Source of the DNA: Patescibacteria group bacterium
GTDB lineage: Bacteria; Patescibacteriota; Minisyncoccia; Phycocordibacterales; UBA2100
DNA length: 42,719 nucleotides
Direction: 5' to 3'
Assembly: GCA_038056635.1 (NCBI GenBank)
Contig: JBBUFE010000001.1
Span: 7,686 to 50,404 of the forward strand
Numbering within the stretch: position 1 is the first letter of the stretch; each line of letters opens with the position of its first letter. The notes under the pieces were generated by a model, which searched no databases, was not told the DNA's origin, and saw only the letters and a list, made by a program, of their open reading frames with translations. Shown in pieces: positions 5,801-37,393 of this stretch. Both the position numbers and the translations under genes were made by a program.

Positions 5801-5817
5801 GCTTAACTTTGACACAG

Positions 5818-5952
5818 CCCCGACACCAACCTTGCGTTTAATTTTGCGAGACATATTTAACAAATGCACAAGAAACCACCGTTATACGGAAGTTGGAATA
5901 AAAGGCTCCGAGCACCGGCAAAACTAGAGCGAAACGCAAGTTGGTGTATGGG
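5818..5952. mobile_element. MITE-like element, copy E (135 bp)
   Basis: The terminal inverted repeats are CCCCGACACCAACCTTGCGTTTAATTTTGCG and CGAAACGCAAGTTGGTGTATGGG. They are flanked by a perfect 5-bp direct repeat, CACAG, at 5813-5817 and 5953-5957. Confidence 0.7.
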
Positions 5953-5974
5953 CACAGCTGACTCATAGTAACAC

Positions 5975-6028
5975 TCCACAGATTGCGTGCAATCTGTGGA
6001 AATTTTTAATTTTTAATTTTTAATTTTC
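5975..6028. repeat. 26-nt palindrome followed by (AATTTTT)x4
   Basis: TCCACAGATTGCGTGCAATCTGTGGA lies at 5975-6000. It is followed by AATTTTT AATTTTT AATTTTT AATTTTC at 6001-6028, which runs into the stop codon of the minus-strand M23 gene. Confidence 0.6.
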
Positions 6029-7145
6029 AAAACGGGTTTCTGATTCCATTTCTTATCTCAAAGTGGACGTGTGGGCCGGTCGCCTTGCCAGTTGCACCCA
6101 CATAGGCGATTACTTGGCCCTTCACAACGCGCTCCCCAGAGTAAACGATGACTCTGGACGCGTGGCTGTAAAGAGTCTGCGCGCCGTTATCGTGCTGAAT
6201 TACGACATAGCTTCCATATCCGCCGTTCCATCCGCCATCTTTCGCAACGACGACATCTCCGCTTGCAGAAGCAAGTATCGGGGCCCCGGCGTAGGTCGCC
6301 AGGTCTACGGCATTGTAGCCGTGAATGCCTTGGCTTTTACGGCCGCTCAAAATTGGACGCAAGTAGTAACTCTGTCCGCTTGCCCCTCCCGGCTCTGCAC
6401 TGCGCGCCGGCTCCGAGGCAGTCCTTGTCTGTGCGGGAGCCGAAATCTCGCCATCCGGAATTATGAGTTCATCTCCTATCGCAAGCGAACTGCCTTCTAT
6501 GCCGTTAAAATTCGCTATCTCGCCGGCATCCCCTCCAAACCGTTTGGCTACGGAGGCAAGCGTGTCGCCTTTCTTTACCGTGTATCTCACTCCCGTTACA
6601 GGGAGAATAGTCAGAATTTGTCCGACCTTAAGCGACGACGCTCGCGAGATATCATTCGCCCAAAGAATCGTATTCGGTGATACATCAAAAAGCTTGGCAA
6701 TGCCGGAGAGCGTGTCTCCCTCGCGCACCACATACACGCTGACTGTGCCGTTCTTTGGCTTTTCGATGTCAGCGATGGTCCCCGATGGACCCTCTTCCGG
6801 CATGAGAGCGGAGCCGTCCACTATCGTTATGTCGCCGCCGCCTCGCCCAGAGGTAGGGTCAATGTTCATTGCGGGCTTTAAAAGTGCCATCGTCTGGACG
6901 TTTCCAGTTACAGTCGCCGCCTGCTCCTTGGAATTTATCTTACCAATTGAAGCCCAAAAGTCGCTAAAAACACCGGCTTTTGCGGTGTTCGGCAGAAGGG
7001 TTCCCGCCATCAGGAGCAGAGAAACCAAGGAAACTGCCGTGCTAACGGTTCTCGATGTCCGGTGTGTCCCCTTGTGCGCGGGTCGTAAATCCGCGCCAGA
7101 GTCCTTTATTGGGTTTGCAATATGCGTTTTTGGCCGGTAGCACAA
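6027..7145 (-). CDS. LysM-domain M23 peptidoglycan metalloendopeptidase
   Basis: There are two LysM repeats (YVVREGDTLSGIAKLF..., YTVKKGDTLASVAKRF...). The C-terminal M23 motifs are HGYNAVDL, GYGSYVVIQHDNG and GATGKATGPHVHFEI. A signal/anchor segment AVSLVSLLLMAGTLLP is present. The codon at 7145 is TTG, so the start is uncertain. Confidence 0.85.
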   Translation of the reverse strand: MCYRPKTHIANPIKDSGADLRPAHKGTHRTSRTVSTAVSLVSLLLMAGTLLPNTAKAGVFSDFWASIGKINSKEQAATVTGNVQTMALLKPAMNIDPTSGRGGGDITIVDGSALMPEEGPSGTIADIEKPKNGTVSVYVVREGDTLSGIAKLFDVSPNTILWANDISRASSLKVGQILTILPVTGVRYTVKKGDTLASVAKRFGGDAGEIANFNGIEGSSLAIGDELIIPDGEISAPAQTRTASEPARSAEPGGASGQSYYLRPILSGRKSQGIHGYNAVDLATYAGAPILASASGDVVVAKDGGWNGGYGSYVVIQHDNGAQTLYSHASRVIVYSGERVVKGQVIAYVGATGKATGPHVHFEIRNGIRNPF

Positions 7146-7349
7146 TCGAGCGTTTCAGTCGAAAAATGGCTTTATATCTTGCTTTTCGAGAAGATAGACC
7201 ACAAAGGAAAAACGGTAATGCCACCGTGCCCCACAACTGTACCTGGCTCACCCGGAGAGTCAACAGTGTCTGTATCTGACGAGGGGATAACTCTTTTGTC
7301 AAATTTTCAGGACAAGCCGTGATATAGTTCGTCGGTTATAGAAAATTAT

Positions 7350-9254
7350 ATGGCCTCTCCCGGCGCGAAATATCTTGATGGCCTAAATGAGGCTCAAAAA
7401 CAGGCTGTTTTGCACAAAGATGGACCGCTTTTAATCGTCGCCGGCGCCGGAGCGGGCAAGACTAAAACCATAACCCATCGAATCGCACATCTAATAGAGA
7501 GTGGCGTCCCGGCCAGAAGCGTCCTCGCAGTGACATTTACCAACAAGGCGGCAGGGGAAATGCGCGAGAGGGTGGGCCGGCTTCTTCCCGCGAGACTAGG
7601 CGGATTGCCTTTGGTTACGACATTCCACTCGTTGGGCGTTCGGCTCTTGCGAGAGTTCCACAAGGAGGCTGGCGTCCCGCGCGGATTCTCAATCTGGGAC
7701 CAAGACGACAGTACGCGAGCCGTCAGAGCCATTCTGAAACAGCTTGGAACGGAAGAATGGACGCCTCGACAAATACTTTCCGCAATTTCACGCGAAAAGG
7801 GTAGGGGTATGGCGATGCGCGACTATCGTGAGCGTGCGGGAAACCGGCGCGAGCAAATGGTGGCGCTCGTATGGGAGCGCTATGAAAAAACTCTCGCCGA
7901 GGAAAACTCTCTGGATTTTGACGACCTGTTGGTCCGGGCCCTCACGCTTCTTCGCGAATCGCCAAAAACACTTTCGCTTCTCCAAAATCGCTGGCGCTAT
8001 CTGACAATTGATGAGTATCAGGATACGAACACCACACAATATGAAATTGCGCGACTCTTGGCTGGAGAACGAAAAAACATCTGTGCAGTAGGTGACATCG
8101 ACCAACTTATTTATCAGTGGCGTGGAGCAGATATGGCAAATCTGCTTTCATTCGAGAAAAATTTTTTGAATTCAACAGTAATTCTGCTCGAACAAAACTA
8201 CCGCTCGACTAGAACAATCCTAGCCGCGGCAAATTCAGTGATTGAAAAAAATTCCAATCGTATTCCAAAAACACTTTTTAGCGAGGGAAAAACTGGAGAA
8301 CCAATTGCAATTTACGGCGCAATGGACGAGCGCGGCGAAGCATGGTTCGTTGTGGAACAATCGGCTCTTCTTATAAACAAGGGGGTGTCCGCGCATGAGA
8401 TTGCAGTTCTATATCGCGAAAATTCACAGTCTCGAGTTTTAGAGGAAGCGTTTTTGCACGCAGGTTTGCCATATCGAGTTTTGGGTACCCGATTCTTCGA
8501 GCGCAAGGAAGTGAAAGACGTGCTTTCATATCTGCGTGCCGTACTTAATCCTAAAAGCAAGAATGACATTATGCGCATCGTTGGCGTACCGCCGCGCGGC
8601 ATCGGGAAAGTAACGCTTGAAAAGATGCTGGCAGGCGAATCACTGGGTGCCGCAGGGGCGAAAGTCGCGAAATTTCAAGAGTCGCTCGCAAAAATCCGAG
8701 AGGCGGTAAATATTCTTCCCGCTTCCGAGGCAGTAAAATTCTGCATTGAGGAAAGCGGGATACAAAAAATGTATGCAGATAAGACGGAGGAGAGCCGCGA
8801 ACGGCTTGGCAATGTGCGCGAACTTGCGAACCTCGCCGCGAAGTACGAAAACGACGAGCCACCCTCGGGAATTGAACGACTTTTGGAAGAAGCCGCGCTA
8901 CAGAGCGAGCAAGACCAACTTGATATCACCAAAGAAAAAGGAGGAGTTTCTCTTATGACGGTACACGCGTCAAAAGGTCTTGAGTTTGATGCGGTTTTCG
9001 TAGTCGGGCTTGAGCAAGGACTCTTCCCGTCTTTGCGCGATGACCAAGAGCGCGACCCGGAAGAAGAGCGGCGACTTTTTTATGTGGCTCTCACGCGCGC
9101 TCGCAAGCATTTGTTCCTGATTTATGCGCACGAACGCACGAAATACGGTTCGCGGGAAGGAGCGATGCCATCGGAATTCTTATCCGATATTGATCCTCGA
9201 TTGATGAAGTACGCGACGGAAGAGGCTGGGGGGAAAGAGGATATTATTGAATGA
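7350..9254 (+). CDS. uvrD: UvrD/PcrA-family ATP-dependent DNA helicase
   Basis: 634 aa with Walker A AGAGAGKTKTITHR, and the motifs TFHSLG, DEYQDTN, NYRST, VLYR, TVHASKGLEFD and VALTRAR. Confidence 0.9.
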   Translation: MASPGAKYLDGLNEAQKQAVLHKDGPLLIVAGAGAGKTKTITHRIAHLIESGVPARSVLAVTFTNKAAGEMRERVGRLLPARLGGLPLVTTFHSLGVRLLREFHKEAGVPRGFSIWDQDDSTRAVRAILKQLGTEEWTPRQILSAISREKGRGMAMRDYRERAGNRREQMVALVWERYEKTLAEENSLDFDDLLVRALTLLRESPKTLSLLQNRWRYLTIDEYQDTNTTQYEIARLLAGERKNICAVGDIDQLIYQWRGADMANLLSFEKNFLNSTVILLEQNYRSTRTILAAANSVIEKNSNRIPKTLFSEGKTGEPIAIYGAMDERGEAWFVVEQSALLINKGVSAHEIAVLYRENSQSRVLEEAFLHAGLPYRVLGTRFFERKEVKDVLSYLRAVLNPKSKNDIMRIVGVPPRGIGKVTLEKMLAGESLGAAGAKVAKFQESLAKIREAVNILPASEAVKFCIEESGIQKMYADKTEESRERLGNVRELANLAAKYENDEPPSGIERLLEEAALQSEQDQLDITKEKGGVSLMTVHASKGLEFDAVFVVGLEQGLFPSLRDDQERDPEEERRLFYVALTRARKHLFLIYAHERTKYGSREGAMPSEFLSDIDPRLMKYATEEAGGKEDIIE

Positions 9255-9267
9255 GAAAAGGACCTCG

Positions 9268-9399
9268 CCCATACACCAACTTTGGCATCATTTTGCGGAA
9301 TCAATGCCGACAGATCACAGGTGTTGCTAACTAGAGTAATATATCCTTAAGAAATATATATGCGGCAAAATAGACGCAATGCCAAAATTGGTGTCGGGG
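9268..9399. mobile_element. MITE-like element, copy A (132 bp)
   Basis: The TIRs are CCCATACACCAACTTTGGCATCATTTTGCGG and CGCAATGCCAAAATTGGTGTCGGGG. There is no flanking direct repeat. The element contains the ATG (9360) used by the rsmA ORF. Confidence 0.55.
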
Positions 9400-10178
9400 C
9401 AAGACTTGGACAGCATTTTTTGAAAACGCCGTGGGCGGCGCGCCCACTCGCGCGCGCGGCATACATTACTGGCGACGACACTGTTCTTGAAATCGGGCCT
9501 GGAAAAGGAGCTCTCACGCGCGAGCTTCTCTCGGTGTCAAAAAAAGTAGTCGCGATTGAAAAAGACGAGGCGCTTGTTGAAAAGTTGCGCGAAAAGTTCG
9601 CGCAAGAAATCTCCACTAACGCACTTACGGTCATTTCCGGCGATATACGCGATATCACGCCAAAAAAACTTGGGCTCGAATCTGGAAAATACATCCTGGC
9701 GGCTAATATTCCGTATTACATAACCGGAGAAATCGTCCGGCAGTTCTTGACAGCCGAAGAACAACCCCGCGCAATGGCGCTTCTTGTTCAAAAAGAGGTA
9801 GCGCAGAGAATCATCAGCAAAAAGGAAAGTCTGTTATCGCTCTCAGTTAAGGTTTATGGCTCCCCGAAAATTGTTGCCAAAGTTCCTCGAGGAAATTTCA
9901 CACCAGCGCCAAATGTTGATTCGGCAATTTTGCTCATAGACAACATTTCTCGGCAATTTTTCGCAGATTTAGATGAAAACTTATTTTTCAAAGTCATTCA
10001 CGCAGGGTTCATGTCCAAAAGAAAATATCTCCTTAACAACCTTGCCACTGTCTTCAAAAAAGAATCGGCCGCTAGCGCATTCGCAATTTGTGAAATAAGT
10101 CTGAAAGCACGCGCCGAGGATGTTCCTCTTGATGCTTGGCGAGCAATCGCCAAGCAGCTTCTAGCTTCTAGTAGCTAG
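9360..10178 (+). CDS. rsmA: 16S rRNA (adenine1518/1519-N6)-dimethyltransferase
   Basis: LGQHFL is followed by the SAM-binding motif EIGPGKGALT and NIPYYIT. The first 14 codons (MRQNRRNAKIGVGA) are encoded by MITE copy A. The C-terminal LLASSS and the stop are encoded by a CTAG heptamer array. Confidence 0.85.
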   Translation: MRQNRRNAKIGVGARLGQHFLKTPWAARPLARAAYITGDDTVLEIGPGKGALTRELLSVSKKVVAIEKDEALVEKLREKFAQEISTNALTVISGDIRDITPKKLGLESGKYILAANIPYYITGEIVRQFLTAEEQPRAMALLVQKEVAQRIISKKESLLSLSVKVYGSPKIVAKVPRGNFTPAPNVDSAILLIDNISRQFFADLDENLFFKVIHAGFMSKRKYLLNNLATVFKKESAASAFAICEISLKARAEDVPLDAWRAIAKQLLASSS

Positions 10179-10240
10179 CTTCTAGGAATATTGTCTTTTG
10201 CTTTTCTAGCAGCTAGAAGCTAGTCCCTAGCAACTATCTT
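10157..10240. repeat. CTAG-heptamer hairpin element (empty form)
   Basis: The left arm is GCTTCTA GCTTCTA GTAGCTA GCTTCTA (10157-10184), followed by a 21-nt spacer/loop. The right arm is CTAGCAG CTAGAAG CTAGTCC CTAGCAA CTATCTT (10206-10240). It covers the stop codons of both convergent genes. Confidence 0.8.
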
Positions 10241-10560: not shown

Positions 10561-10725
10561 GTTTTGTATTCTAACACCACATATTGCTGGCACCGGGCAT
10601 GTCAACAATAGTCAACGGCCGTATTGAATCGTTGATATGTTTTGCCCCGCATATGCAATACCTTTCCATGGCTTGTTTAAGAATCATTCTATCTTGTATT
10701 GGAACAGCGCTACGCGCTGTTGCCA

Positions 10726-10760
10726 CTATACGCTATACGCTATACGCTATACGCTATGCC
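10726..10760 (+). repeat. (CTATACG)x4 plus degenerate fifth unit containing the start codon
   Basis: CTATACG occurs at 10726, 10733, 10740 and 10747. CTATGCC at 10754-10760 contains the ATG at 10756. Confidence 0.85.
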
Positions 10761-11712
10761 ATGGCTTCGCGCATATCCTCGGTCGGCTCTAATCGCTCTC
10801 GCGGTGACTCTCATTGTTATTGGCAGTCTTGTTATCGCAAGAAAATCCCCAATGGAAACAAGCCCCTCATATTCAACCGTCTCTGAAGAAAGCGCTTTTG
10901 TTGAATCACCGTTTCCTTATGATACCGCGCCCATAGCAGAGGAGGGTGTCTTGAAGCTCATTCCGCCATCACTTATGCAGTCAGTAGTAAGCAGTCCTCC
11001 CTTTTCATATTCTTCTCCTTTTATTTCTCGGGAGGCCAAACCTGCTCCCAGCGTCGTTCCATCAAACACATCTTCTGCGGAAGTGAAAAAAACTCCCGAA
11101 ATTACAGACGGCGCGAATTTTTGGAACGCATATTCGCTGACACCTCGCGGACTGATAAGCACTTCAATAGCAATAAAAACCCGCACCCCCGAAGAAAAAG
11201 CTCTTTTTGATTACGGCAACGAGCTCGGCTTATATATAGGAGCATTCGAGGACGCCCATCAAAATACGGTTTCTTCTTTTCAGGATTTCTTTTCGGCTCG
11301 GGGCGCTACGCCTTCTGGAGAATTAGGGGGATTAAAGGCGGGATCGCAACCAAAGCCCGCGCCGCCTCCAGCGGACGGAGGCCTTTCCGCTATTGAAAGA
11401 ATCACATCAACGGCAAGAGATTACTCGCGGCTCGGAGATACTATCGCGAACATGAGTTCTGTTCCAAAAGACGCACAACGTCTCCATCTGACCCTCTCCC
11501 AAGGTTACGGCGAGATTGGCGCGGGTCTTTCCGCAATCGTCCAACCGAATGGCGGCGACCTGGTAAAAGCTGTCCTTGCCTACAATGAATCCGCAGATAA
11601 ATTCATCAAAAATTTTGTGTCTCTTGCAGAATTTTTCTCCGCTCGCGGCATCAAATTCTCTTCGAGCGACCCTGGAAATATTTTTTCTTTCAGCGCAACA
11701 GGCGGTCTATAG
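10756..11712 (+). CDS. membrane-anchored protein, unknown function (paralogue of next gene)
   Basis: The ATG at 10756 gives MPWLRAYPRSALIALAVTLIVIGSLVIA (TM anchor). A Ser/Pro-rich linker and a helical C-terminal domain follow. A canonical terminator follows the gene. Confidence 0.6.
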   Translation: MPWLRAYPRSALIALAVTLIVIGSLVIARKSPMETSPSYSTVSEESAFVESPFPYDTAPIAEEGVLKLIPPSLMQSVVSSPPFSYSSPFISREAKPAPSVVPSNTSSAEVKKTPEITDGANFWNAYSLTPRGLISTSIAIKTRTPEEKALFDYGNELGLYIGAFEDAHQNTVSSFQDFFSARGATPSGELGGLKAGSQPKPAPPPADGGLSAIERITSTARDYSRLGDTIANMSSVPKDAQRLHLTLSQGYGEIGAGLSAIVQPNGGDLVKAVLAYNESADKFIKNFVSLAEFFSARGIKFSSSDPGNIFSFSATGGL

Positions 11713-11768
11713 ACTCTGCACGCCAAGTCAAGGGGAGTCCTTGATTTTGTTTTGGCTGAATTTTCTCC

Positions 11769-11805
11769 GCGTCGAAACTGTGGTCAGTTTCGACGCGATT
11801 TTTGC
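11769..11805 (+). terminator. Rho-independent terminator
   Basis: GCGTCGAAACT (11769-11779) pairs with AGTTTCGACGC (11786-11796) around a 6-nt loop. GATTTTTGCTTCTT follows. Confidence 0.8.
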
Positions 11806-11866
11806 TTCTTGGAATACCAAGAAAAAAATCGCCTATTGCCTAAGTGCCCATTGTCTGCTTATTGGA

Positions 11867-11875
11867 TGTTATAAT
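11867..11875 (+). promoter_or_regulatory. extended -10 promoter element (TGtTATAAT)
   Basis: TG at 11867-11868 and TATAAT at 11870-11875 lie 6 nt before the in-frame GTG at 11882. This is consistent with a leaderless transcript. Confidence 0.4.
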
Positions 11876-11881
11876 TTTCGT

Positions 11882-12709
11882 GTGGAAAACCGACGCATCT
11901 ACTCGAGCGGGCTTTCTAGCATTGCCACCACGGCTGTACTTTCCGTTGCGGTTCTCTTATCGGCTCTCGTCTGGCAAGTAACCACGACCATAGACACAAA
12001 AAAGGCATCCTTGCGCGTAGTTTCCGATTATTCTAAGGAGGGGCGGGCTACACCAACGCAAGAAAGTACTTCGGACCAATTGCAAGCAGGGACCGTTGCG
12101 AGCGCAACAAACACAAAACCATATGACTCGAATGACTTGTCGCAAATAGGCGATAACGCCTTCGGAAAACTCATCGGAACGTACGTTGCATTAAAACAAT
12201 CTGGCGCATACACAGCATCTGCAGGCGAGCGCGTCGCACAAGACATTGCTACATCTTTAACCGCGCCCGTAGCGTATGCGCCGATTTTAGAAAGCGACAT
12301 TAAGGCTGACTCTGACACGTCTTATAAACGGATGCTTCAGTACCGGAGTGATATGCGCACTGCATACGAACCGCTTCTGCAAAACAAAGAGCCGGAGTTT
12401 GCTGTTTTCGCCCGATATGTTGAGACTGGCGACAAAAGCAATCTGGCCACGCTATCTCTGTATGCGGAAAGGTACAAGAAGACGGCTACAAACGCGAAAA
12501 ATGCCACCGTGCCGAAAGACACTATTTCCTACCATGTGAGAATTGCGAACTCACTTCTACAGTTCGCGGCGGTACTTGAACAAATGGTCAAGTACGCAGA
12601 TAACTCGATGGCATCTCTCGCGCTTTTGCGTACATACAACAGTGCAGAGCTTGAGGTGCTTACCTCTTTCAACTCCATCGCGACATTTCAGAGAAACAAA
12701 ACGCCATGA
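11882..12709 (+). CDS. membrane-anchored protein, unknown function
   Basis: GTG at 11882 is the first ATG/GTG/TTG start codon after the terminator. The TM anchor is LSSIATTAVLSVAVLLSALVW. The C-terminal helical domain has a TYNSAE...F motif resembling AYNESAD...F in the preceding protein. The stop overlaps the next start (ATGA). Confidence 0.5.
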   Translation: MENRRIYSSGLSSIATTAVLSVAVLLSALVWQVTTTIDTKKASLRVVSDYSKEGRATPTQESTSDQLQAGTVASATNTKPYDSNDLSQIGDNAFGKLIGTYVALKQSGAYTASAGERVAQDIATSLTAPVAYAPILESDIKADSDTSYKRMLQYRSDMRTAYEPLLQNKEPEFAVFARYVETGDKSNLATLSLYAERYKKTATNAKNATVPKDTISYHVRIANSLLQFAAVLEQMVKYADNSMASLALLRTYNSAELEVLTSFNSIATFQRNKTP

Positions 12710-16910: not shown

Positions 16911-16911
16911 T

Positions 16912-17568: not shown

Positions 17569-18055
17569 CTTCTAGCTTCTAGGGACTAGCTTCTAGGTAT
17601 AACCGCGTAACTCATAGCTTCTAGAAAATATGACAGAGATAATCAAGTCGCACAAAGATTTAATAGTTTGGCAAAAGTCCGTACAACTTTCTCTCATAAT
17701 TTACCGCATAACTAGTGATTTCCCTCCGCGAGAAATGTACGCTCTTTCTTCACAAATGCGACGAGCAGCTGTTTCAATTCCGTCCAATATCGCAGAAGGA
17801 AAATCTCGTGGAACAAGAAAAGATTTCGCGCATTTTCTGCACATGTCATATGGTTCCGCTGCTGAACTGGAAACGCAGTTACTAATCGCCAAACAATTGA
17901 ATTTCTGCGAGGATGAGAAATTTAACGAAACGAATTCACTGCTATCCGAAGTGAGCAAGATGTTGCGTGTTATGATAGAGAAACTGGAGACTAGTTAACT
18001 AGCGGCTGCTTTTGTTTTGCCTAGAAGCTAGAAGCTGGTCCCTAGCAGCTAATCC
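17563..18055 (+). mobile_element. inverted-repeat-flanked cassette carrying a four-helix-bundle gene
   Basis: The left arm is GCTTCTA GCTTCTA GGGACTA GCTTCTA (17568-17595). The right arm is CTAGAAG CTAGAAG CTGGTCC CTAGCAG CTAATCC (18021-18055). CTAGGGACTAGCTTCTAG in the left arm pairs at 17 of 18 positions with CTAGAAGCTGGTCCCTAG in the right arm. Confidence 0.45.
17630..17998 (+). CDS. four-helix-bundle protein (23S rRNA intervening-sequence protein / Avd-like family)
   Basis: 122 aa. The pattern DLIVWQKS...L...IY.IT..FP..E.YALSSQMRRAAVSIPSNIAEG...R....F..FL..S.GS..ELETQL is the hallmark of this family. Confidence 0.85.
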   Translation: MTEIIKSHKDLIVWQKSVQLSLIIYRITSDFPPREMYALSSQMRRAAVSIPSNIAEGKSRGTRKDFAHFLHMSYGSAAELETQLLIAKQLNFCEDEKFNETNSLLSEVSKMLRVMIEKLETS

Positions 18056-18057
18056 AT

Positions 18058-18660: not shown

Positions 18661-18669
18661 TTATTCTAT

Positions 18670-22392: not shown

Positions 22393-22394
22393 CT

Positions 22395-23630: not shown

Positions 23631-23631
23631 T

Positions 23632-25058: not shown

Positions 25059-25097
25059 ATGCCCGGCACTATATTACACTTCGTTTGAAAATGCGAA

Positions 25098-25231
25098 CCC
25101 CGACACCAAATTTGGCATCATTGTGCGTGGAATCTTTTTCGCACCAAGGCACAGATATGTCGGCTGTTCTCCAGCTAACCGCTCCCATGCGATGGCACAA
25201 CAGAAGACACAATGCCAAAATTGGTGTGGGG
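25098..25231. mobile_element. MITE-like element, copy B (134 bp)
   Basis: The TIRs are CCCCGACACCAAATTTGGCATCATTGTGCG and CACAATGCCAAAATTGGTGTGGGG. A perfect 5-bp direct repeat, GCGAA, lies at 25093-25097 and 25232-25236. Confidence 0.7.
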
Positions 25232-25250
25232 GCGAACCCGCACACTCATT

Positions 25251-26748: not shown

Positions 26749-26878
26749 GTACCGTGTATGGAGTATAGCGTATGGCGGACAAGAGAGGAAGTATCGCGTA
26801 TGATGTATGGCATATGGCGGGCATGCGATTTTGAATTTTGTATTTCTCCCTCCATACACGATACGCCATACTCCATAT
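26749..26878. repeat. heptamer arrays (GTATNNN x4, x4, then inverted NNNATAC x4) upstream of rpmH and dnaA
   Basis: The first block is GTACCGT GTATGGA GTATAGC GTATGGC (26749-26776). The second is GTATCGC GTATGAT GTATGGC ATATGGC (26791-26818), in the same 7-nt phase. The inverted block is TCCATAC ACGATAC GCCATAC TCCATAT (26851-26878). Confidence 0.75.
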
Positions 26879-26884
26879 AATTCT

Positions 26885-26973: not shown

Positions 26974-28338
26974 ATGCCGCCGACCTCAATGACAAACCGA
27001 GAGCTTTGGCAAAACGCATTGGTACAAATTGAATTGGGAACATCTGAAGCAAGCTTCCGCACATGGTTTAGGAACACGGACATCGGGGGGCGAGACGGAA
27101 GCACTGTTCATGTGGCCGTGCCGAGCAAAATCGTCAAAGAGTGGTTGATGGAAAAGCATCACAAGCTCATTCTCAAAGCCCTTCGAGGCCTAGACAACAA
27201 CGTACGGGCCGTCGAGTACACGGTGCATCGCGCGGCACCATCACAAGAGCACAAGCCAGGTCGTACACAGCCGCCAGAAGAAAACGCGTCTCTTGATCTG
27301 CAGGCCCTCTACATTGATAAGAGAGACAATCTAAACCCGCGCTATACTTTTGAGACTTTTGTCGTCGGGCCCTTCAATCAACTCGCGCACGCGGCAGCAA
27401 AAGCAGTTCTGGAACGCCCCGGTCTTGCATATAACCCTCTCTTTATCTACGGCTCGACTGGCCACGGCAAGACACACCTCATCCAAGCCATCGGAAACAA
27501 CTTCAAAAAGGCGCATGCCAACAAAAAAGTTCTCTATGTAACCGCAGAGCGCTTCGCTGTGGACTACATAAACGCTGTTAGCACCGGACGCGCGAATAAT
27601 TTCAAGGACCAGTACCGCCAGTATGATGTTTTAATAATGGATGACGTTCAATTCATCGCGAAAACAGAAAAAACACAGGAGGAGCTCTTCCATTTATTCA
27701 ATGCGATGCATGACAACAACAAACAAATTGTTTTCTCTTCCGACAAGCACCCGAACTTCCTTCCTGGGTTCGAGGACCGCCTCAAGGGCCGTTTCAGCGC
27801 GGGAATGATAGCAGAAATTCCTGAACCCGACATAGAGTCAAGAACGGCTATAATCAAGGCTAAAATCGAGCAACACGGCTTCAGCATTCCCGACGATATT
27901 ATTCAATACATCGCTGAAAGCGTTCGCGGAAACATTCGCGAGCTGGAGGGTGTTTTGAATATGATAGTTTGCAAATCCCAGCTGAAAGGAAAGGCCGTGT
28001 CGCTTGCCGATGTCCGCACTCTTGTCAAACACAACGTGAAGCCGAACAAGGGGGTTTCCGTAGACGAGGTGGTGCGCCGCATCGCGCAGTATTACGACAT
28101 CCCGGAAAAAAGCATATACGAAAAAACGCGCAAGAAAGAGGTGGTTAAGCCAAGACAGATTATCATGTACATGCTCCGAGAAGAATTCAGTATTTCTTAT
28201 CCTTCCATAGGAGAAAAGTTGGGCGGGCGCGATCACACAACCGTAATCCACTCATGCGAGAAGATAAAACATGAGATTAAAAACGATGCCGCGCTCGACC
28301 AAGAGCTCGAGCATATACGCGCGCTCATACACTCATAA
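26974..28338 (+). CDS. dnaA: chromosomal replication initiator DnaA
   Basis: 454 aa with Walker A GSTGHGKTHL, the AAA+ box VLIMDDVQF, the sensor motif NIRELEG and the C-terminal DNA-binding GGRDHTTVIHSCEKI. Confidence 0.95.
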   Translation: MPPTSMTNRELWQNALVQIELGTSEASFRTWFRNTDIGGRDGSTVHVAVPSKIVKEWLMEKHHKLILKALRGLDNNVRAVEYTVHRAAPSQEHKPGRTQPPEENASLDLQALYIDKRDNLNPRYTFETFVVGPFNQLAHAAAKAVLERPGLAYNPLFIYGSTGHGKTHLIQAIGNNFKKAHANKKVLYVTAERFAVDYINAVSTGRANNFKDQYRQYDVLIMDDVQFIAKTEKTQEELFHLFNAMHDNNKQIVFSSDKHPNFLPGFEDRLKGRFSAGMIAEIPEPDIESRTAIIKAKIEQHGFSIPDDIIQYIAESVRGNIRELEGVLNMIVCKSQLKGKAVSLADVRTLVKHNVKPNKGVSVDEVVRRIAQYYDIPEKSIYEKTRKKEVVKPRQIIMYMLREEFSISYPSIGEKLGGRDHTTVIHSCEKIKHEIKNDAALDQELEHIRALIHS

Positions 28339-29719: not shown

Positions 29720-32179
29720 TTACTGAATCGTGAAGTTAATTGTCTTTTCCTCATTTCCGGACGCGCTTTCCGCAACCGCGCGCAGTGTTACCGGCCCGCG
29801 TGTCGGGGGAGTTATAGAAATTGAAAATGCCGGCGGTGTTCCGACTCCTATGCGGATATTATTTAAATAATAAGAGACGCGAGACACGTTTTCTGGACGA
29901 GGCGCAAAAACTGAAATTACGAGCGGTACAAAAGATGAGACAGTTGTTCCAGACTGCGGCGAAGTAATTGTGAAAACTTTTCCTGCACCCGCCGCTCCAG
30001 AGCTTGGAGAGGGGCGCGGGGCGGATTGCAAAAGTTTTTCTGGGTTGCCCTGCGCCCAAATCTGCACAGGATATTCCCAGCGGGCAAACTGCGGATCGTT
30101 ATTTGGGTTGGCTGGTCGGCCGCCGCGAGGACTTCCTTTCTCCGTCCAATAGAGAATGTCGTGAATTCCCTCCGACGGGTTAGAGTTCCAACTTCCTCGC
30201 AAAACCGGCGGAAGAGAGTCCAGTTCTGTTTCAGGCGCTTGAGGAGGGAAGGCGCCCGAAGAATATTTTTCGATTGCGTATGCAGTAACCTCGTGCCACA
30301 TCGGCGCCACAATGAAAGCGGCAATCTTTTTTACCATCGGGCTGTTGTCATTATTTCCTGCCCACGCGCCGACAGCAATGCCTGGCGTATACCCTATGAC
30401 CCAAGCATCGCGATAATCGTTTGTGGTCCCTGTTTTATCGGCTACAGGGGTGCCCGGGAAGTAAAGCGGGGAATCGGCGCCGAATTCAGGAGCTCGGGCC
30501 ACGTTATCAGAAAGAATATCATTTATTTGCCTGGCAATCTGTTGGTCCATGACGCGCAAACTCTCCAGTTCAAAGACCTCTAACGTGTTTCCCGCGCCGT
30601 CCTCGACGCGCAAAACGCTCGCGGGGGGATTCCGTATTCCGTCATTCGCAAATACCCCGTATGCTCCTGTCATTTCCAAGAGATTCGCTTCACCCCCGCC
30701 CAAAACAAGCGTGAGCCCGTATTGGTCCTTGTCGTCGAGCGTAGTTATTCCCATATCGCTCGCAGTTTTTAAGGAATCTGCTACTCCGGCGAGATAAAGG
30801 ATTTTCACGGAGGGGATGTTCACAGATTGCGCAAGGGCGTTTCGCAATGTGATTGGGCCATGGAATTTCAGGTCGAAGTTTTCGGGAGAATAGCACGGCG
30901 GTTCATCGGAAAAATCTTCCGGCTTGCAGTAACTGGAGAATTGGGTTTTTAGGTCAAACACAACCGCGTCTGGCGTGTATCCTTTTTGGAGGGCGGTTGC
31001 ATAAACGAACGGCTTGAATGTGGAGCCAGGCTGGCGGTTTGCAAGAGTTACGTTCACTTTCCCGTCTATTTTGGAGTCGAAATATCCGCGCGAGCCGACC
31101 ATTGCCAGAATCTGCCCGGATTTGGGGTCTATTGCCACGAGCCCCGCGTTTGAGGCGTTGAAGTTCTTTTCATTTGAAAGCGCCGCCTTGGTCAGCGTCT
31201 CCTCCGCTTTCTTTTGTAAATCGTAATCAAGGGTAGTCGTTACTTGAAGGCCCCCTCTCTCGACTGCATCTGCTCCATACTTTTCTTCGAGGTACTCGCG
31301 GACATAAAACACGAAGTGCGGGGCCTTGATGCCCGCCGCCGCCTCATCTTTAAACTCAACTTTTTCCTGCAGTGCGTTTTCATATTCAATATCGGCGATA
31401 AATCCGTTCTCTTTCATCTTTTGCAGAACAAGATTTTTTCTCCTCTCTAATTCATCGCGGTGATTTCCGTAAGGAGAATAGCGCGTGGGCGCCTGCGGAA
31501 GGGCGGCCATGTACGCGGCTTGCGCGAGAGAAACATCCTTAGCGCTTATGCCGAAAAAGTATTGGCTCGCTTCCTCAACCCCGTATATTGTCCCGCCGTA
31601 GGAGGTCTCGTTTAAGTATGTGGCGAGAATCTGGTCCTTCGAGTAATGCCGCTCCAACTTTATTGCCAGAGCGATCTCTTTTATCTTGCGAATTATTGTT
31701 TTGTCTCGAGTGAGGAGCGCATTTTTAACCACCTGCTGGGTGATGGTCGAACCGCCTTGAACAAATTTCATGGAAAGAATATCGACCGCCATCGCGCGGA
31801 GGAGTGACAATGGCCGGAAGCCGTAGTGCTGGTAAAATTCCGCATCTTCGACAGCGACAGCGGCGTTTCTCAAGTTGGGAGAAATTTCATCGAGAGGGAC
31901 TGCCGTTCGGCGCATTATTCCGTGCACGTCGAAAAGGAGCACGTTTCCGGTTCGGTCATAAATCTTTGTCGATTCCGCAACTCTGCGGTTCTGGAAATTA
32001 TCAATCGAAGGGATTGTAAGCACGACCGCCCATGCGGCTATAATTCCTCCGCCAAACATCGCGATGACTGCGATGGTTGCGAGCGCCGCCTTTATGTACG
32101 GTAACGCATGTTTCCATCCGCGGGGTTTGTTTGCGGCGCTGTATGGCGGATATGGAGGCGGCATAGTAGATTGGCGCAT
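29720..32179 (-). CDS. class A penicillin-binding protein (transglycosylase/transpeptidase)
   Basis: The GT51 motifs are EDAEFYQHYG, GGSTITQQVVKN and RKIKEIALAIKLE. The transpeptidase motifs are STFKPF, SVN and KTGTT. I placed the start at the ATG at 32179. The TTG at 32206 on the track is in frame with MITE-derived sequence. Confidence 0.9.
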   Translation of the reverse strand: MRQSTMPPPYPPYSAANKPRGWKHALPYIKAALATIAVIAMFGGGIIAAWAVVLTIPSIDNFQNRRVAESTKIYDRTGNVLLFDVHGIMRRTAVPLDEISPNLRNAAVAVEDAEFYQHYGFRPLSLLRAMAVDILSMKFVQGGSTITQQVVKNALLTRDKTIIRKIKEIALAIKLERHYSKDQILATYLNETSYGGTIYGVEEASQYFFGISAKDVSLAQAAYMAALPQAPTRYSPYGNHRDELERRKNLVLQKMKENGFIADIEYENALQEKVEFKDEAAAGIKAPHFVFYVREYLEEKYGADAVERGGLQVTTTLDYDLQKKAEETLTKAALSNEKNFNASNAGLVAIDPKSGQILAMVGSRGYFDSKIDGKVNVTLANRQPGSTFKPFVYATALQKGYTPDAVVFDLKTQFSSYCKPEDFSDEPPCYSPENFDLKFHGPITLRNALAQSVNIPSVKILYLAGVADSLKTASDMGITTLDDKDQYGLTLVLGGGEANLLEMTGAYGVFANDGIRNPPASVLRVEDGAGNTLEVFELESLRVMDQQIARQINDILSDNVARAPEFGADSPLYFPGTPVADKTGTTNDYRDAWVIGYTPGIAVGAWAGNNDNSPMVKKIAAFIVAPMWHEVTAYAIEKYSSGAFPPQAPETELDSLPPVLRGSWNSNPSEGIHDILYWTEKGSPRGGRPANPNNDPQFARWEYPVQIWAQGNPEKLLQSAPRPSPSSGAAGAGKVFTITSPQSGTTVSSFVPLVISVFAPRPENVSRVSYYLNNIRIGVGTPPAFSISITPPTRGPVTLRAVAESASGNEEKTINFTIQ

Positions 32180-32217
32180 GAAGTTAATCGACTGATTGTA
32201 CCGCAAGTAACCGGTTG

Positions 32218-32353
32218 CCCCGACACCAACTTTGGCATTGTGTCTTCAACTGTGTCATCGTACGAAGGCGAGTCGTCGGCGAACGAGAGGACGTATTTGT
32301 GGTTTCATGCGAAGAAACTTCCACGCGCAATAATGCCAAAGTTGGTGCATGGG
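32218..32353. mobile_element. MITE-like element, copy C (136 bp)
   Basis: The TIRs are CCCCGACACCAACTTTGGCATTGTGTC and CGCAATAATGCCAAAGTTGGTGCATGGG. The flanks GGTTG and CTTGG are only a degenerate direct repeat. Confidence 0.55.
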
Positions 32354-32419
32354 CTTGGCAAAAACGCCCAAATATGGCATCTTCTAGCAATTAACCTCTC
32401 GTCCATCACAAAGCTCCCT

Positions 32420-33445
32420 ATGAAAATCAAACTTAGGTACGGAGAGAATCCTCATCAGAAAGCATCCGCATCTCCCAAAACCACAAGAGATGTTTTGGCA
32501 ATTGCGCGTTTCAAGCGAGAGGACGGCAGTCCGTTTGTGGGAGCGGACGCAAGCTGGATATCAATAACCGACCTAGGGCGCCTTATTCAAGTTGTTGAGA
32601 GATTTGCCGCGGCGTATCGCAAAAATATCTCCCCCTCGCTTCCGAATGTCGCGGTTATCGTTAAGCACGGCAGTCCCTGCGGCGCGGCTTTTGGCAAGAA
32701 CGGAGAGAGCGTTGCGCGTGATGCGTGGCTCGGAGACCCGCACGCGGCCTTTGGAGGATTTCTTATTGTTACGTTTCCGTTCACCGCGAAAATTGTTGAG
32801 GCCCTAGCGTATGCAAACGGCGGCAGGACGCCTTTCCTGAGCGGTGTTGCGGCGCCGTCTTTTGAAAAAGGCGTTGCAGAAGGAATTGGCGCGAAGAGCA
32901 AGGGAACCCACTTTATTTCAAATAAGGCGCTGGCAGAGATTCCGGCTCAAATTTCGAAACAGAACGAGATAAGCTCTGCGCGCGACTACATTCTCGAACA
33001 AACATCGACCCAATTTGTCCCGGTATTCTCCAGAATGGAGTATCACGGCCCTGTGCTTTCGGCGCATGTAAGTAAAGAAATTTTTGCAGACCTCTCGCTT
33101 GCCTACGCCGTGTGTTCAGCGAGTACGAGCAATACAGTCTCGCTAGTGAAAGACGGAGCGCTGATAGGAAACGCGGTTGGCCAGCAAAAGCGCGTCGGGA
33201 GCGCGAAGCTTGCGCTGCGGCTGGCGGAAGAAAGCAGTCATGGCACGAAAGGCGCTGTCGCAGTTTCAGACAGCTATTTCCCGTTTCCAGACGGTCTTGA
33301 GGCGTTGGCAAAGGGAGGGGTGCGAGCAATTTTTGCAACTTCCGGCTCTGTGCGCGACAGAGAAGTGTTCGCGCGCGCGGAAGAGCTTCATGTGGGAATG
33401 TTTACCGTTTCCGACAAGGTAGGAAGAATGTTCGCTGGACACTGA
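32420..33445 (+). CDS. purH: AICAR transformylase domain protein (PurH C-terminal domain only)
   Basis: The ATG at 32420 gives MKIKLRYGENPHQKA, the AICARFT signature. At 341 aa it has no MGS-like IMP cyclohydrolase domain. The upstream part of the 445-aa track ORF crosses the MITE and the PBP start. Confidence 0.7.
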   Translation: MKIKLRYGENPHQKASASPKTTRDVLAIARFKREDGSPFVGADASWISITDLGRLIQVVERFAAAYRKNISPSLPNVAVIVKHGSPCGAAFGKNGESVARDAWLGDPHAAFGGFLIVTFPFTAKIVEALAYANGGRTPFLSGVAAPSFEKGVAEGIGAKSKGTHFISNKALAEIPAQISKQNEISSARDYILEQTSTQFVPVFSRMEYHGPVLSAHVSKEIFADLSLAYAVCSASTSNTVSLVKDGALIGNAVGQQKRVGSAKLALRLAEESSHGTKGAVAVSDSYFPFPDGLEALAKGGVRAIFATSGSVRDREVFARAEELHVGMFTVSDKVGRMFAGH

Positions 33446-33528: not shown

Positions 33529-34014
33529 CTAATGCGCGGATGGACGAACTCTCGATAGGTGGGTCAAACCGACGGCTATGGCGTCATACTCGTCGTCGTA
33601 TTTTATTTCCTTTTCGATTTTCACGAGCGCGTGTAGCATTTTGGCGATTTGTTGCTTATCTGCTCTGCCGTAGCCTCCAGCGGCACTCTTAATTTCCCCT
33701 GGAGTATATTCAAAAACGGGGATGCCGAGGTTTGCCGCGGCATTGATGAGCGCGCCCCGCACTTCCGCGACGCGCATCGCGGTTTTTTGATTCGTGCTGA
33801 AGTAGAGTTTCTCCATCGCGAGCGCGTCTGGCATATATTTCTTTGCAAGACGAGAGCATTCACCCGCAACAGTTCCAAGCCGCGCGGTAAAATCAGCGTC
33901 CTTAGATGTCTCTATGCAATCGGAATAAAGAAGAACCTCTTTCGTTCCTTCCGTGCGCTCCAACACGGCCACGCCGCATCTTCCGTATCCGGGGTCAATT
34001 GCCAAAACTCTCAT
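33529..34014 (-). CDS. ruvC: Holliday junction resolvase RuvC
   Basis: MRVLAIDPGYGRCGVAVLE is the RuvC N-terminal catalytic motif. The 161-aa length fits. Confidence 0.9.
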   Translation of the reverse strand: MRVLAIDPGYGRCGVAVLERTEGTKEVLLYSDCIETSKDADFTARLGTVAGECSRLAKKYMPDALAMEKLYFSTNQKTAMRVAEVRGALINAAANLGIPVFEYTPGEIKSAAGGYGRADKQQIAKMLHALVKIEKEIKYDDEYDAIAVGLTHLSRVRPSAH

Positions 34015-34015
34015 A

Positions 34016-34098
34016 GCTTCTAGCTTCTAGCTTCTAGGGGCTAGAAACAATATCTGTATTGTACTAGAAGCTAGTAGCTAGTCCCTAGCAGCTATTCA
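34016..34098. repeat. CTAG-heptamer hairpin element (empty form)
   Basis: The left arm is GCTTCTA x3 plus GGGGCTA (34016-34043), followed by a 20-nt loop. The right arm is CTAGAAG CTAGTAG CTAGTCC CTAGCAG CTATTCA (34064-34098). It spans exactly from the ruvC start to the yebC stop. Confidence 0.8.
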
Positions 34099-34665: not shown

Positions 34666-34667
34666 AC

Positions 34668-35549: not shown

Positions 35550-35555
35550 TGCGAC

Positions 35556-35828
35556 ATGACCACTATACAAGTACGCATTGACGAAAAAACGAAAGCAAAG
35601 GCCAATAAGGTCTTTCGCAAAATGGGGCTTGATATGTCGAGCGGCGTTAAGCTATATCTTGCGCGCGTTGTGCAGGACGAGACGATTCCTTTTACCGTTC
35701 GTACGGTGAACGGATATACGCCGGAGCAGGAACGGCAGATGATTAGAGAAACGGAGTATGCGAAACTTCACGGAAAGCGGTACGATGATATCGATGAGTT
35801 GATGCGTGACGTATTCGGCAAGAAGTAA
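35556..35828 (+). CDS. RelB/DinJ-family type II antitoxin
   Basis: MTTIQVRIDEKTKAKANKVFRKMGLDMSSGVKLYLARVV is the DinJ ribbon-helix-helix pattern. The 90-aa length fits. Confidence 0.8.
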   Translation: MTTIQVRIDEKTKAKANKVFRKMGLDMSSGVKLYLARVVQDETIPFTVRTVNGYTPEQERQMIRETEYAKLHGKRYDDIDELMRDVFGKK

Positions 35829-35829
35829 C

Positions 35830-36111
35830 ATGTATTTAGTCGTCATTTCGTCTCGTGCGAGAAAATCATTGCGCAAGTACGAACACATCGGCGTGTTTCC
35901 ACGAGGCAAATTCAGGCAGGCACTCTTGCATCTGCGAGAAAACGGCTTCTTGCCGGTATCCTATAGAGACCACCAGCTCCACGGAGAGCTTTCAACTTAT
36001 CGCGAATTTCACATTGCCTCTGATGTTCTCGTTCAATACGAACATGACGAGAAATTGATGGTTATCACGATTACTGATGTTGGGACGCATACCGAATTTT
36101 TCGGCTCGTAA
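35830..36111 (+). CDS. YafQ/RelE-family type II toxin (mRNA interferase)
   Basis: The ATG at 35830 lies 1 nt after the antitoxin stop. RDHQLHGELSTYREFHIASDVLVQY matches the YafQ DH.L.G....RECHI..D.LLIY motif. Confidence 0.75.
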   Translation: MYLVVISSRARKSLRKYEHIGVFPRGKFRQALLHLRENGFLPVSYRDHQLHGELSTYREFHIASDVLVQYEHDEKLMVITITDVGTHTEFFGS

Positions 36112-36120
36112 CACACGAAG

Positions 36121-37137
36121 CTAGATTAGCGGCGGTTGAGATTTTCGAGGAGCATCCGCTCCTATGTGCTCATATCCCTTTTTCGTCACCGTTCTCCCGC
36201 GGGGAGTTCTGTCCAAAAGGCCGAGTTGCATCAAGTACGGCTCATGCACTTCTTCAATAGTGTCCTCCTCTTCGGAAAGGGAAGCGGAGATTGTTTTTAA
36301 TCCGACAGGACCGCCGCCGAATTTCTCCACGATGATTGAGAGGATGTCGCGGTCGGTCTGATTGAGCCCGCCCTCGTCAATTTCAAGAAGCGCGAGAGCC
36401 TTTTTTACGGTCTTTAAGTTCAACGGCTCTTCGTTAACTTCCGCGAAGTCGCGGCAGCGCTTTAGTAGATAATTCGCCGTGCGCGGTGTCGCGCGGCTTC
36501 TGCTCGCAACTTCTTTTATGGAGTCGCCGTCGGTTTTGATATTAAGGATTTTTGCGGAACGCTTGAGAATTTCCGCTATCTCGTTCTCGCTGTAGTACTG
36601 AAGCCGGAACGTGCCGCCGGAAAAGCGGGAGCGGAGCGGCGCGGAAAGCATGGAAATGCGCGTGGTCGAGGCAATCAGTGTAAAAGGCGGGAGCTCCAAC
36701 TGCACGGTGCGCGCCGAAGGGCCTTTTCCAATTATGATGTCCAAAACCCCGGCTTCCATTGCGGGATACAAGACTTCCTCGATGGTTCGATTGAGCCGAT
36801 GGATTTCGTCTATAAAAAGAACGTCTCCCGGCGAGAGGTTGGTCAGAATTGAAGCGAGGTCGCCCACGCGCTCAACCGCGGGTCCGGAGGTGGCGCGCAT
36901 AGATGCTCCTATCTCTTTTGTCATGAGATGAGCGAGAGTGGTTTTGCCGAGACCGGGCGGCCCATATAGAAGCACGTGCTCGGGCTGGTGGTTTCTGCCT
37001 TTGGCGGCAGTGAGGAGAATTCGCAGGTTCTCTTTTATGGTCGGCTGACCCACATACTCTTCCCAACTCAAAGGGCGGAGCGCCAAATCAAGGGAGCGCG
37101 GGCTTTTTTCAATAGTATTTTTATCTTTATCTGTCAT
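36121..37137 (-). CDS. ruvB: Holliday junction branch-migration helicase RuvB
   Basis: The motifs are LRPLSWEEYVGQ, Walker A GPPGLGKTTLA, Walker B VLFIDEIHRL and the arginine finger LRSRF. The 338-aa length fits. Confidence 0.95.
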   Translation of the reverse strand: MTDKDKNTIEKSPRSLDLALRPLSWEEYVGQPTIKENLRILLTAAKGRNHQPEHVLLYGPPGLGKTTLAHLMTKEIGASMRATSGPAVERVGDLASILTNLSPGDVLFIDEIHRLNRTIEEVLYPAMEAGVLDIIIGKGPSARTVQLELPPFTLIASTTRISMLSAPLRSRFSGGTFRLQYYSENEIAEILKRSAKILNIKTDGDSIKEVASRSRATPRTANYLLKRCRDFAEVNEEPLNLKTVKKALALLEIDEGGLNQTDRDILSIIVEKFGGGPVGLKTISASLSEEEDTIEEVHEPYLMQLGLLDRTPRGRTVTKKGYEHIGADAPRKSQPPLI

Positions 37138-37138
37138 A

Positions 37139-37267
37139 CCCGAACACTAAGTTTGCCGTAATTTTGTGCCGAAGCAACCCCAGAACACTCTGGTTTCCCA
37201 CCTGTTGTTGCAAAACCACCCATAGTGGCTTGGTTCATGAGAGGCAACGGCAAATTTAGTGTGCGGG
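37139..37267. mobile_element. MITE-like element, copy D (129 bp, diverged)
   Basis: The TIRs are CCCGAACACTAAGTTTGCCGTAATTTTGTGCC and GGCAACGGCAAATTTAGTGTGCGGG. A perfect 5-bp direct repeat, TCATA, lies at 37134-37138 and 37268-37272. The left copy contains the ruvB start codon. Confidence 0.7.
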
Positions 37268-37393
37268 TCATACTTGTGAGACCCTCTAGCTCTCTATCAG
37301 AGAGGCGAAGGGACTCTGTAACCTCTTCCACATACAATATCACCATGCGCTTGTCTCGCAACGGGACTCTGACATGGGCCTCTGCACATGCGC

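Follow-up and report, generated by a model that had tools for sequence, protein, structure and literature searches.

What are the palindromic repeats that recur, beside and inside genes, along a single stretch of a small bacterial genome, and how are they tolerated there? The question is raised by 42,719 nt (42.7 kb) of contig JBBUFE010000001.1 from a Patescibacteria group bacterium, the whole of which we refer to as the window and which carries five copies, A to E, of a palindromic element of 129–136 bp. In the candidate phyla radiation (CPR), genomes are about 1 Mb in size and have hardly any DNA to spare, and the single-copy rRNA genes are noted for insertions that lack an explanation. [quoted passage not shown] Further copies, target duplications, and filled and empty insertion sites support a non-autonomous element of this kind, and the description proved incomplete rather than wrong. 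In our judgement the five repeats are likely to be members of one family of palindromic mobile elements, non-autonomous and found in Parcubacteria/Paceibacteria, within the CPR, which behave like the Rickettsia palindromic elements (RPE).

Applied to the entire window without filters, a covariance model of 52 copies of the family recovered the same five copies that the sequence-only reading had located and no others; the next match had an E-value of 4.6. The window has 13 occurrences of the core arm motif where 3.2 would be expected, and none of 100 shuffles has as many. The five copies form long hairpins, with folding energies of −42 to −60 kcal/mol and z values from −3.5 to −5.3. Copy A (5818..5952, plus strand, 135 bp; 55 bits with the covariance model; hairpin −41.7 kcal/mol, z −3.5) is located 17 nt upstream of the ATG of purA (4781..5800, minus strand) and 75 nt downstream of an M23/LysM peptidase gene, between 5-bp copies of CACAG at 5813..5817 and 5953–5957. 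Copy B (9268..9399, plus strand, 132 bp; 90 bits) lies within the first rsmA codons, and its duplication has decayed to CTCG/CAAG. Copy C (25098..25232, plus strand, 135 bp with canonical ends; 73 bits, z −5.3) sits between the yidC stop and the jag start, both genes being on the minus strand, 39 nt upstream of the jag ATG; its duplication is CGAA (25094–25097 and 25233–25236), or GCGAA with the end that the sequence-only reading set at 25231. Copy D (32218..32353, minus strand, 136 bp) is inverted relative to the other four, as can be told from the two element ends, which are distinguishable just inside the arms; it lies between divergent PBP1A and purH-like genes, with flanks GTTG and CTTG. 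Copy E (37139..37267, plus strand, 129 bp; 60 bits, z −4.6) abuts the ruvB start codon and is flanked by the 5-bp duplication TCATA (reverse complement TATGA) at 37134..37138 and 37268–37272. The identities of these genes were confirmed with Pfam, and the 5-bp direct repeats previously reported for A, C and E (CACAG, GCGAA and TCATA) are all present. Four of the five copies are placed between genes that run in the same direction with little space between them, and those four are therefore probably transcribed. Their orientation with respect to transcription is not consistent: B is in the sense direction, and A, C and E are antisense.

The element is bounded by terminal inverted repeats of ~21 bp within arms of ~21–24 bp: CCCnnACACCAAnTTTGGCAT. 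An outward-facing ATG, 21–19 nt from each end, is part of the conserved arm (ATGCCAAA), and each end reads outward as ATG-CCA-AAr-TTG-GTG-nnG-GGG. The consensus shows the arms to be free of stop codons in all six frames, and whole elements have a mean of 1.06 open frames against 0.42 in shuffles. The sequence-only reading had given the outward ATG to every copy except E; it is present in B, C and D and is missing from A (arms CCTTGCGTT/AACGCAAGG) as well as from E (arms CACTAAGTTTGCCGT/ACGGCAAATTTAGTG). The arm variants that it listed exist, with their labels misplaced: CCTTGCGTT/AACGCAAG belongs to copy A and not to E, and TTTGCCGT/ACGGCAAA belongs to copy E, at 37139, and not to D.

Copies are also found well beyond the window, in dozens of genomes of Parcubacteria/Paceibacteria. 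Scanning species-representative genomes with the exact arm pattern CCCNNACACCAANTTTGGCAT returned 60 stretches, ~45 of which are loci in metagenome-assembled genomes (MAGs) of Patescibacteria/CPR from many species, among them Paceibacterota, Parcubacteria, Kaiser-, Taylor-, Zambryski- and Campbellbacteria and some labelled Saccharibacteria. In most of these ~45 the two arms are 105–115 nt apart; the remaining matches were single, at chance level, and in unrelated phyla. Elements mostly measure 129–141 bp, ~135 bp being usual, with additional forms of 68–74 bp and 39–40 bp, some nested copies, and a family range of 39–264 bp. The arms are conserved between genomes and the interiors are not. The spread of the family is patchy: 80 metagenome loci (660 kb), picked only for encoding a UvrD homologue, held one full copy and one mini hairpin, versus five copies in the 42.7 kb studied here. 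The source of the window is a set of groundwater assemblies from Hainich, and its nearest syntenic relatives are loci L018, L006 (a Kaiserbacteria MAG), L053, L051 and L063; an arm that appeared to stand alone in L018 is a complete element with an indel. At Rfam gathering thresholds for the whole window, and at E≤10 for copy C, only chance-level matches to miRNA hairpins were obtained. In viral contigs the arm pattern gave two lone matches and no paired arms, and thus no sign of a phage vector.

Some family members depart from the standard form. Single arms with no recognisable partner occur in coding sequence at L004:7260–7290, where the arm is translated as DAKLGVRV in a redoxin-like protein, and at L047:2490–2520, where it reads DAKVGVWG in an RsmB-like methyltransferase; these are probably relics, possibly of old in-frame insertions absorbed into the protein. 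Compound, nested or tandem copies are found at L008:4766–4940, L035:2947–3127, L038:1444–1628, L032:6180–6392 and 6636–6848, L011:2872–3135 and L049:5130–5402. Among their forms are complete elements in 16S genes that have an additional, degenerate left arm upstream, a 213-nt copy that encloses one of 74 nt, and two copies with only TTTA between them, which suggests insertion into or beside existing copies.

Mobility is indicated by the DNA at the insertion sites. Perfect 4-bp duplications flank 26 of 51 full-length copies and perfect 5-bp duplications a further class of four, against 0.13% in offset controls. The two lengths are distinct classes, and copies A and E truly have 5 bp. The duplications noticed in the window are real, duplications across the family are far above chance, and their length is 4–5 bp, mostly 4 across the family, rather than a fixed 5 bp, a possibility that we rejected on the same count of perfect 4-bp cases (26/51). 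The 39–40-nt mini forms likewise carry 4-bp duplications. The duplicated sequences vary (TTTA/TAAA is commonest; CTTG, CCAG, CGTG, ACAG, CATA and others occur, and many targets are G+C-rich), and the flanking repeats are therefore duplications of target DNA rather than parts of the element or of a longer conserved unit. Among 33 copies whose duplications are perfect, 13 carry 3 nt beyond the duplication that match the element's own terminal triplet, so that in those 13 copies 7 nt of the target are rebuilt. A 7-bp GGGNNNN duplication was considered and rejected: it fits the pilin and tRNA sites described below and does not fit copies A, C and E, and the outermost arm bases belong to the element because they co-vary. 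The GGGTTTA...GGGTTTA flank that recurs in other genomes reflects repeated insertion at the Gly-Phe-Thr codons of pilin genes.

Comparison of orthologous sites revealed filled and empty states at rsmA, within RuvB, and at the ruvB start. At rsmA, the element is present in the window, L006 and L053 and absent from L018 and L063. Copy B is orthologous to L006:4692–4823, and L053:2694–2826 occupies the same site; the empty L018 site reads ATGAGCAAAGGAGCGAGGCTTGGTCAG, that is, MSKGARLGQ.... In L051 the ruvB start lacks the element that the window has there as copy E. An exact empty site for copy A was not found in L063 or L053, which are syntenic with the window and have intergenic DNA too diverged for it. 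In the purA-upstream spacer of L063, the closest syntenic relative here, at the position of copy A, a degenerate inverted pair (CCCCAGTCTAGCAT...ATGCCTAGA, 2562–2657) may be a decayed element remnant.

The sequence-only reading placed all copies in the 5' regions of genes. The location stands and is not incidental: the element is compatible with coding and lies inside or directly against genes. This is clearest in type IV pilin genes, where 16 copies (12 long, 4 short) sit at Gly-Phe-Thr codons, in the arrangement ...GGGTTTA, element, TTTACACTTATCGAA.... There the outward arm reads M-P-K-L-V-S-G/F-T-L-I-E, a new prepilin leader, while the original pilin ATG and leader are still present upstream of the element. 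Because the leader is removed between G and F (marked by the slash), the mature pilin is unchanged whichever start is used. At these sites the element length plus 4 nt is divisible by 3 in 12 of 16 copies, and 12 of 16 have no stop codon in the pilin frame from one end of the element to the other, where 2.6 such copies would be expected. Two frame-shifting copies (135+4 nt), L022:2272–2406 and L011:3001–3135, are open from an upstream ATG in the compensating frame, which suggests a secondary frame-restoring change upstream. The RuvB protein of L051 has a clean in-frame insertion of 47 aa, corresponding to a 137-nt element plus 4 nt, that is absent from the RuvB of the window; the stretch spanning the element-encoded residues reads ...YPNTNFGIA...DAKIGEGV....

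Three of the window copies bear on gene starts. The present rsmA open reading frame (ORF) (9360..10178, plus strand; RrnaAD match over residues 15–266, 2.2e-51) has its start codon inside copy B, and its first 13–14 codons (MRQNRRNAKIGVG and part of the next, Ala) are element-encoded. The right arm of copy B is read as AKIGVGA and is followed by the conserved RLGQHFL motif, the RsmA stretch that spans the element-encoded residues being MRQNRRNAKIGVGAR. A relic of the original start, ATGAGAAAAGGACCTCG, remains at 9251..9267 on the plus strand, its ATG overlapping the uvrD stop codon (ATGA); the uninterrupted start in L018 reads ATGAGCAAAGGAGCGAGG. At copy D, the right-arm ATG (32333) is in frame with purH, and an ORF at 32108..33445 reads through the whole element, so that gene callers give a PurH of 424 aa. 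At copy E, the duplicated TATGA holds the ruvB ATG (37137–37135, minus strand). A 45-codon upstream ORF (MTRTLNLPLPLMNQATMGGFATTGGKPECSGVASAQNYGKLSVRV, then stop; 37134..37271, minus strand) begins at the other, duplicated ATG and runs without a stop through all of copy E. Its terminal TGA shares bases with the ruvB ATG (ATGA), which would permit termination–reinitiation at ruvB. Gene callers place here an ORF of 70 aa with a 4-nt overlap with ruvB.

RNA genes are also occupied. The element lies inside the 23S rRNA genes of L001 and L054 and inside the genes for 16S rRNA in L019, L008, L035 and L038, each time at the tip of a hairpin that the rRNA already has, with its arms aligned as the helix. 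The 23S insertions map to positions 274–295 of the Rfam large-subunit (LSU) model, and the 16S insertion in L019 to positions 178–200 of the small-subunit (SSU) model. In L027 and L034 the element abuts tRNA-Ala(UGC) such that its terminal GGG supplies tRNA nucleotides 1–3 and the duplicated CCAG nucleotides 4–7; the old GGGCCAG remains upstream of the element. CPR rRNA genes are reported to carry many short, ORF-less, uncharacterised non-intron insertions (PMC11270868), and some of these are accounted for by the present family.

The compensatory changes between arms that were first noticed in the window hold for the whole family. Over 52 copies, 96% of cells in the 19-pair terminal helix are paired (29–46% in slid controls), and 13 of the 19 pairs have changed on both sides, against 3.9 in column shuffles, none of 500 of which reached the observed value. 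Some mirrored variants, for example TCCGCACACTAA.../...TTAGTGTGCGGA, define subfamilies common to several genomes, and others are unique multi-site changes, as in L056:3082 (CCTGTTTTGGTAT/ATACCAAAACAGG), L012:4199, L077 and window copies A and E. A further inner helix co-varies between orthologous copies, being ATTTTGC/GCAAAAT in the window and ATTTCGC/GCGAAAT in L006. In one subfamily the inner segments adjoining the arms can pair in two mutually exclusive registers, GTTGCA/TGCAAC and GTGTTTT/AAAACAC; RNAalifold retained the arms only. The mirrored changes point to pairing within a strand, of RNA or of single-stranded DNA, as the object of selection or correction.

Taken as a mobile element, the family would spread as follows. 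A trans-acting transposase would make a staggered cut, and insertion would duplicate 4 bp, sometimes 5 bp, of the target. Survival in a compact genome would depend on the element being compatible with genes: its arms are stop-free and carry an outward ATG, and its terminal GGG together with the duplication can rebuild up to 7 nt of the target, so that a gene hit at or near its start would be repaired or given a new start, and in-frame copies would simply be translated. In rRNA and mRNA, the transcribed hairpin might be processed, for example by RNase III, or merely be tolerated.

Several observations weigh against this explanation. No transposase or integrase domain was found with Pfam in 39 window ORFs, which bears out, for the ORFs tested, the sequence-only statement that the window has no transposase. 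Nor was there a recurrent transposase-like ORF cluster in ~330 kb of element-bearing loci: when 219 ORFs of these loci, each 200 aa or longer, were clustered all against all, the only clusters were pilB, pilC, pilD, pilin-type and housekeeping genes. Among the family matches there was no long element with these ends, and no cognate autonomous insertion sequence was seen in the window, the 45 element-bearing loci or the two viral matches, whole genomes lying outside the search. Most of the cases in which the target is healed are pilin genes, which represent one target type and are not independent. Copies D and E are identical in four Hainich samples, so that no population polymorphism was detected, and recent movement in the window lineage is not shown. 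Translation of the element-encoded extensions is a prediction from open frames. Finally, mirrored arm changes are not predicted if a transposase recognises double-stranded ends, and a simple MITE model leaves them unexplained.

Two other explanations are built on pairing. The element could primarily be a functional structured RNA, a signal for RNase III processing or transcript stability placed between genes transcribed together and within rRNA, comparable to 23S rRNA intervening sequences or to Neisseria Correia hairpins, with its spread being secondary. The paired and doubly changed arm helix (96%, 13 pairs) and the inner helix that co-varies between the window and L006 argue for it, as do the probable transcription of four window copies between close co-directional genes, the placement at hairpin tips in rRNA, and the precedent of Correia inverted repeats, which are cut in transcripts by RNase III (PMC10969869). 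However, the orientation relative to transcription is inconsistent, the interiors are not conserved and nothing in Rfam matches; one full copy in an unbiased 660 kb of related loci is not what a conserved regulatory feature of particular genes would give, and the duplications and empty sites show arrival by insertion. As the primary explanation we regard a structured RNA as possible and rather unlikely; as an added property of a mobile element it is compatible with the explanation that we prefer. Alternatively, the element might move as a folded single strand through a structure-specific enzyme, as REPINs do with RAYT/HUH proteins or attC sites with IntI, rather than by DDE-type cut-and-paste. 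Selection on a hairpin substrate predicts arm changes, including the unique multi-site ones, that are mirrored and keep pairing, and no DDE partner turned up among the window ORFs tested or in element-bearing loci. Variable 4–5-bp duplications, though, are typical of staggered double-strand cuts and atypical of insertion by HUH enzymes (IS200/IS605, RAYT) or tyrosine recombinases; the arms lack attC-like RYYYAAC/GTTRRRY cores, the window contains no RAYT or integrase domain, and the arm sequence itself, not its structure alone, is highly conserved. Transposition by this route therefore seems to us very improbable.

An intron-like insertion, removed from RNA so as to restore rRNA, tRNA, pilin and RuvB transcripts, would explain how the element can sit inside single-copy essential RNA and protein genes, and removal of the element with one copy of the duplication does restore the original sequence exactly. 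Yet the reading frame is under selection, in 12 of 16 pilin copies (in frame and stop-free, where 2.6 are expected) and in RuvB, which counts against an intron because splicing would make length and stops irrelevant. There is no group I or group II intron signature, no bulge-helix-bulge geometry is evident at the junctions, and we give this explanation almost no credence. A bolder proposal, under which the element is more than a parasite that its host tolerates, combines two claims: that it is mobilised or maintained as a folded single strand, which would account for the mirroring of changes between the arms, and that it acts as a portable gene-start module, a transcript-cut hairpin followed by an outward AUG-Pro-Lys-Leu-Val-x-Gly leader, with which signal peptides, tRNA 5' ends and N-termini would be rebuilt. 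We hold this combination to be improbable. Should it be true, a mobile element would have a route into the essential genes of minimal genomes that has not been described before, and many of the short insertions in CPR rRNA genes would have an explanation.

The preferred explanation, a non-autonomous palindromic mobile element, can be set against known systems. The family has features by which MITEs are recognised: a size below ~500 bp with no transposase, inverted repeats, variable duplications, dispersed copies, and presence or absence at orthologous sites. Similar to the CPR element, RPEs are palindromic repeats of ~100–150 bp that have no transposase of their own and reside in a reduced genome (PMC10969869), and they insert in frame in unrelated protein genes, keeping the ORF and adding residues. 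Both the in-frame insertion of RPEs and the cleavage of Correia hairpins by RNase III are reviewed in the same source (PMC10969869). The cases here that match RPE behaviour are the 47-aa insertion in RuvB, the pilin leaders and the N-terminus of RsmA. In contrast to RPEs, the element lives in another phylum, has clear 4–5-bp duplications, an outward start codon in each arm and a target-rebuilding GGG, and also occurs in hairpins of 16S and 23S rRNA and against the 5' end of a tRNA; it is an analogue, likened to RPEs by behaviour and not by sequence. The Correia elements (CREE/NEMIS) of Neisseria and the ERIC sequences are also hairpin MITEs, of ~100–150 bp with inverted repeats of roughly 25 bp, many of whose copies lie between co-transcribed genes and for which no host transposase is known; the hairpin formed by the inverted repeats in transcripts is cut by RNase III in the case of Correia elements (PMC10969869). 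Both duplicate TA, whereas the duplications here are variable and 4–5 bp long; the arm sequences differ, and open-frame insertion within genes is prominent in the CPR element.

Intervening sequences (IVS) of rRNA resemble the element as stem-loops of ~100–200 nt at the tip of an rRNA helix in hosts with a single rRNA operon. The CPR element differs in not being specific to rRNA, since it is also intergenic, within protein-coding genes and beside tRNA genes, and in having target duplications. Like the element, REPINs are hairpin doublets of a conserved sequence of roughly 20 nt, with correlated evolution of the arms and no internal transposase. REPINs are not known to make target duplications and depend on a single-copy RAYT gene. 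The CPR element has duplications, and the window has no RAYT-like gene; with duplications present and no Y1/HUH transposase domain in the window ORFs, we rejected a REPIN/RAYT system. An integron attC site was rejected as well, because the arms (CACCAAC...GTTGGTG) do not fit RYYYAAC...GTTRRRY, the copies are dispersed among housekeeping genes, and there is no integrase. With regard to a possible transposase, IS1380 makes 4–5-bp duplications according to ISfinder. The CPR element shares with piggyBac and IS1380 its CCC...GGG ends and a duplication of 4(–5) bp, of which the A+T-rich TTTA/TAAA is commonest. The termini of piggyBac itself are CCC and its 4-bp duplication is TTAA; among prokaryotes, IS1380 is its relative (PMC10813416). 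The CPR targets are not TTAA and no such transposase was found near any copy, so that we treat this relationship as a lead only.

For CPR/Patescibacteria, we found neither MITEs nor palindromic elements described in the literature searched. Elements of this kind are known, and what appears to be new is the family, the range of its hosts and the way in which it rebuilds its target. It adds a further and unusually extensive case, outside Rickettsia, of a palindromic element living inside genes, and its sequence suggests why insertion is not lethal. One mobile hairpin can explain some of the short non-intron insertions in CPR rRNA genes. There are also consequences for annotation: gene starts are shifted (rsmA, purH, pilins), an upstream ORF is created (ruvB) and a protein is lengthened (RuvB), and gene callers and rRNA/tRNA annotation pipelines will treat such copies inconsistently.

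The window contains other repeats and cassettes. Two genes for 23S rRNA-intervening sequence proteins (PF05635), at 17630..17998 and 39655..40032, are not located in rRNA genes. The former is bracketed by a CTAG-rich inverted repeat of 42 nt (17562–17603/18014–18055) and the latter by one of 27 nt with 89% complementarity (39624–39650/40034–40060); together with their flanks (17555–18055 and 39624–40060) they look like small hairpin-flanked cassettes. A link between these genes and the palindromic element was considered and rejected, as their flanking inverted repeats are different and they do not occur alongside the element in other loci. A second palindromic family, with GCTTCTAG/CTAGAAGC units, forms ORF-less intergenic hairpins at 10144–10240, 19314–19422 and 33996–34097, and also occurs at 17555–17630 and 18007–18055; its arms are of the same type as the flanks of the gene at 17630, and it may consist of ORF-less cassette derivatives or of terminator-like elements. 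Short tandem repeats of heptamer type (ATACGCT and variants) are found at 10723–10757, 17348–17425 and 26749–26883. The last of these lies just upstream of dnaA (26974..28338), in the gap between rnpA and dnaA, which is probably the replication origin region.

The region 10699–24534 resembles a type IV secretion system (T4SS), with a PrgI-like gene (18058..), a VirB4/TraG-like ATPase gene (19418..) and a T4SS pilin gene (23632..), and several large ORFs in this T4SS-like cluster have no Pfam match (10699–17568, 21358–23630). Directly downstream of ruvB is a gene for a YafQ-family toxin (35806–36111 and adjacent), and a RelB-type antitoxin is called beside the toxin in the source contigs.

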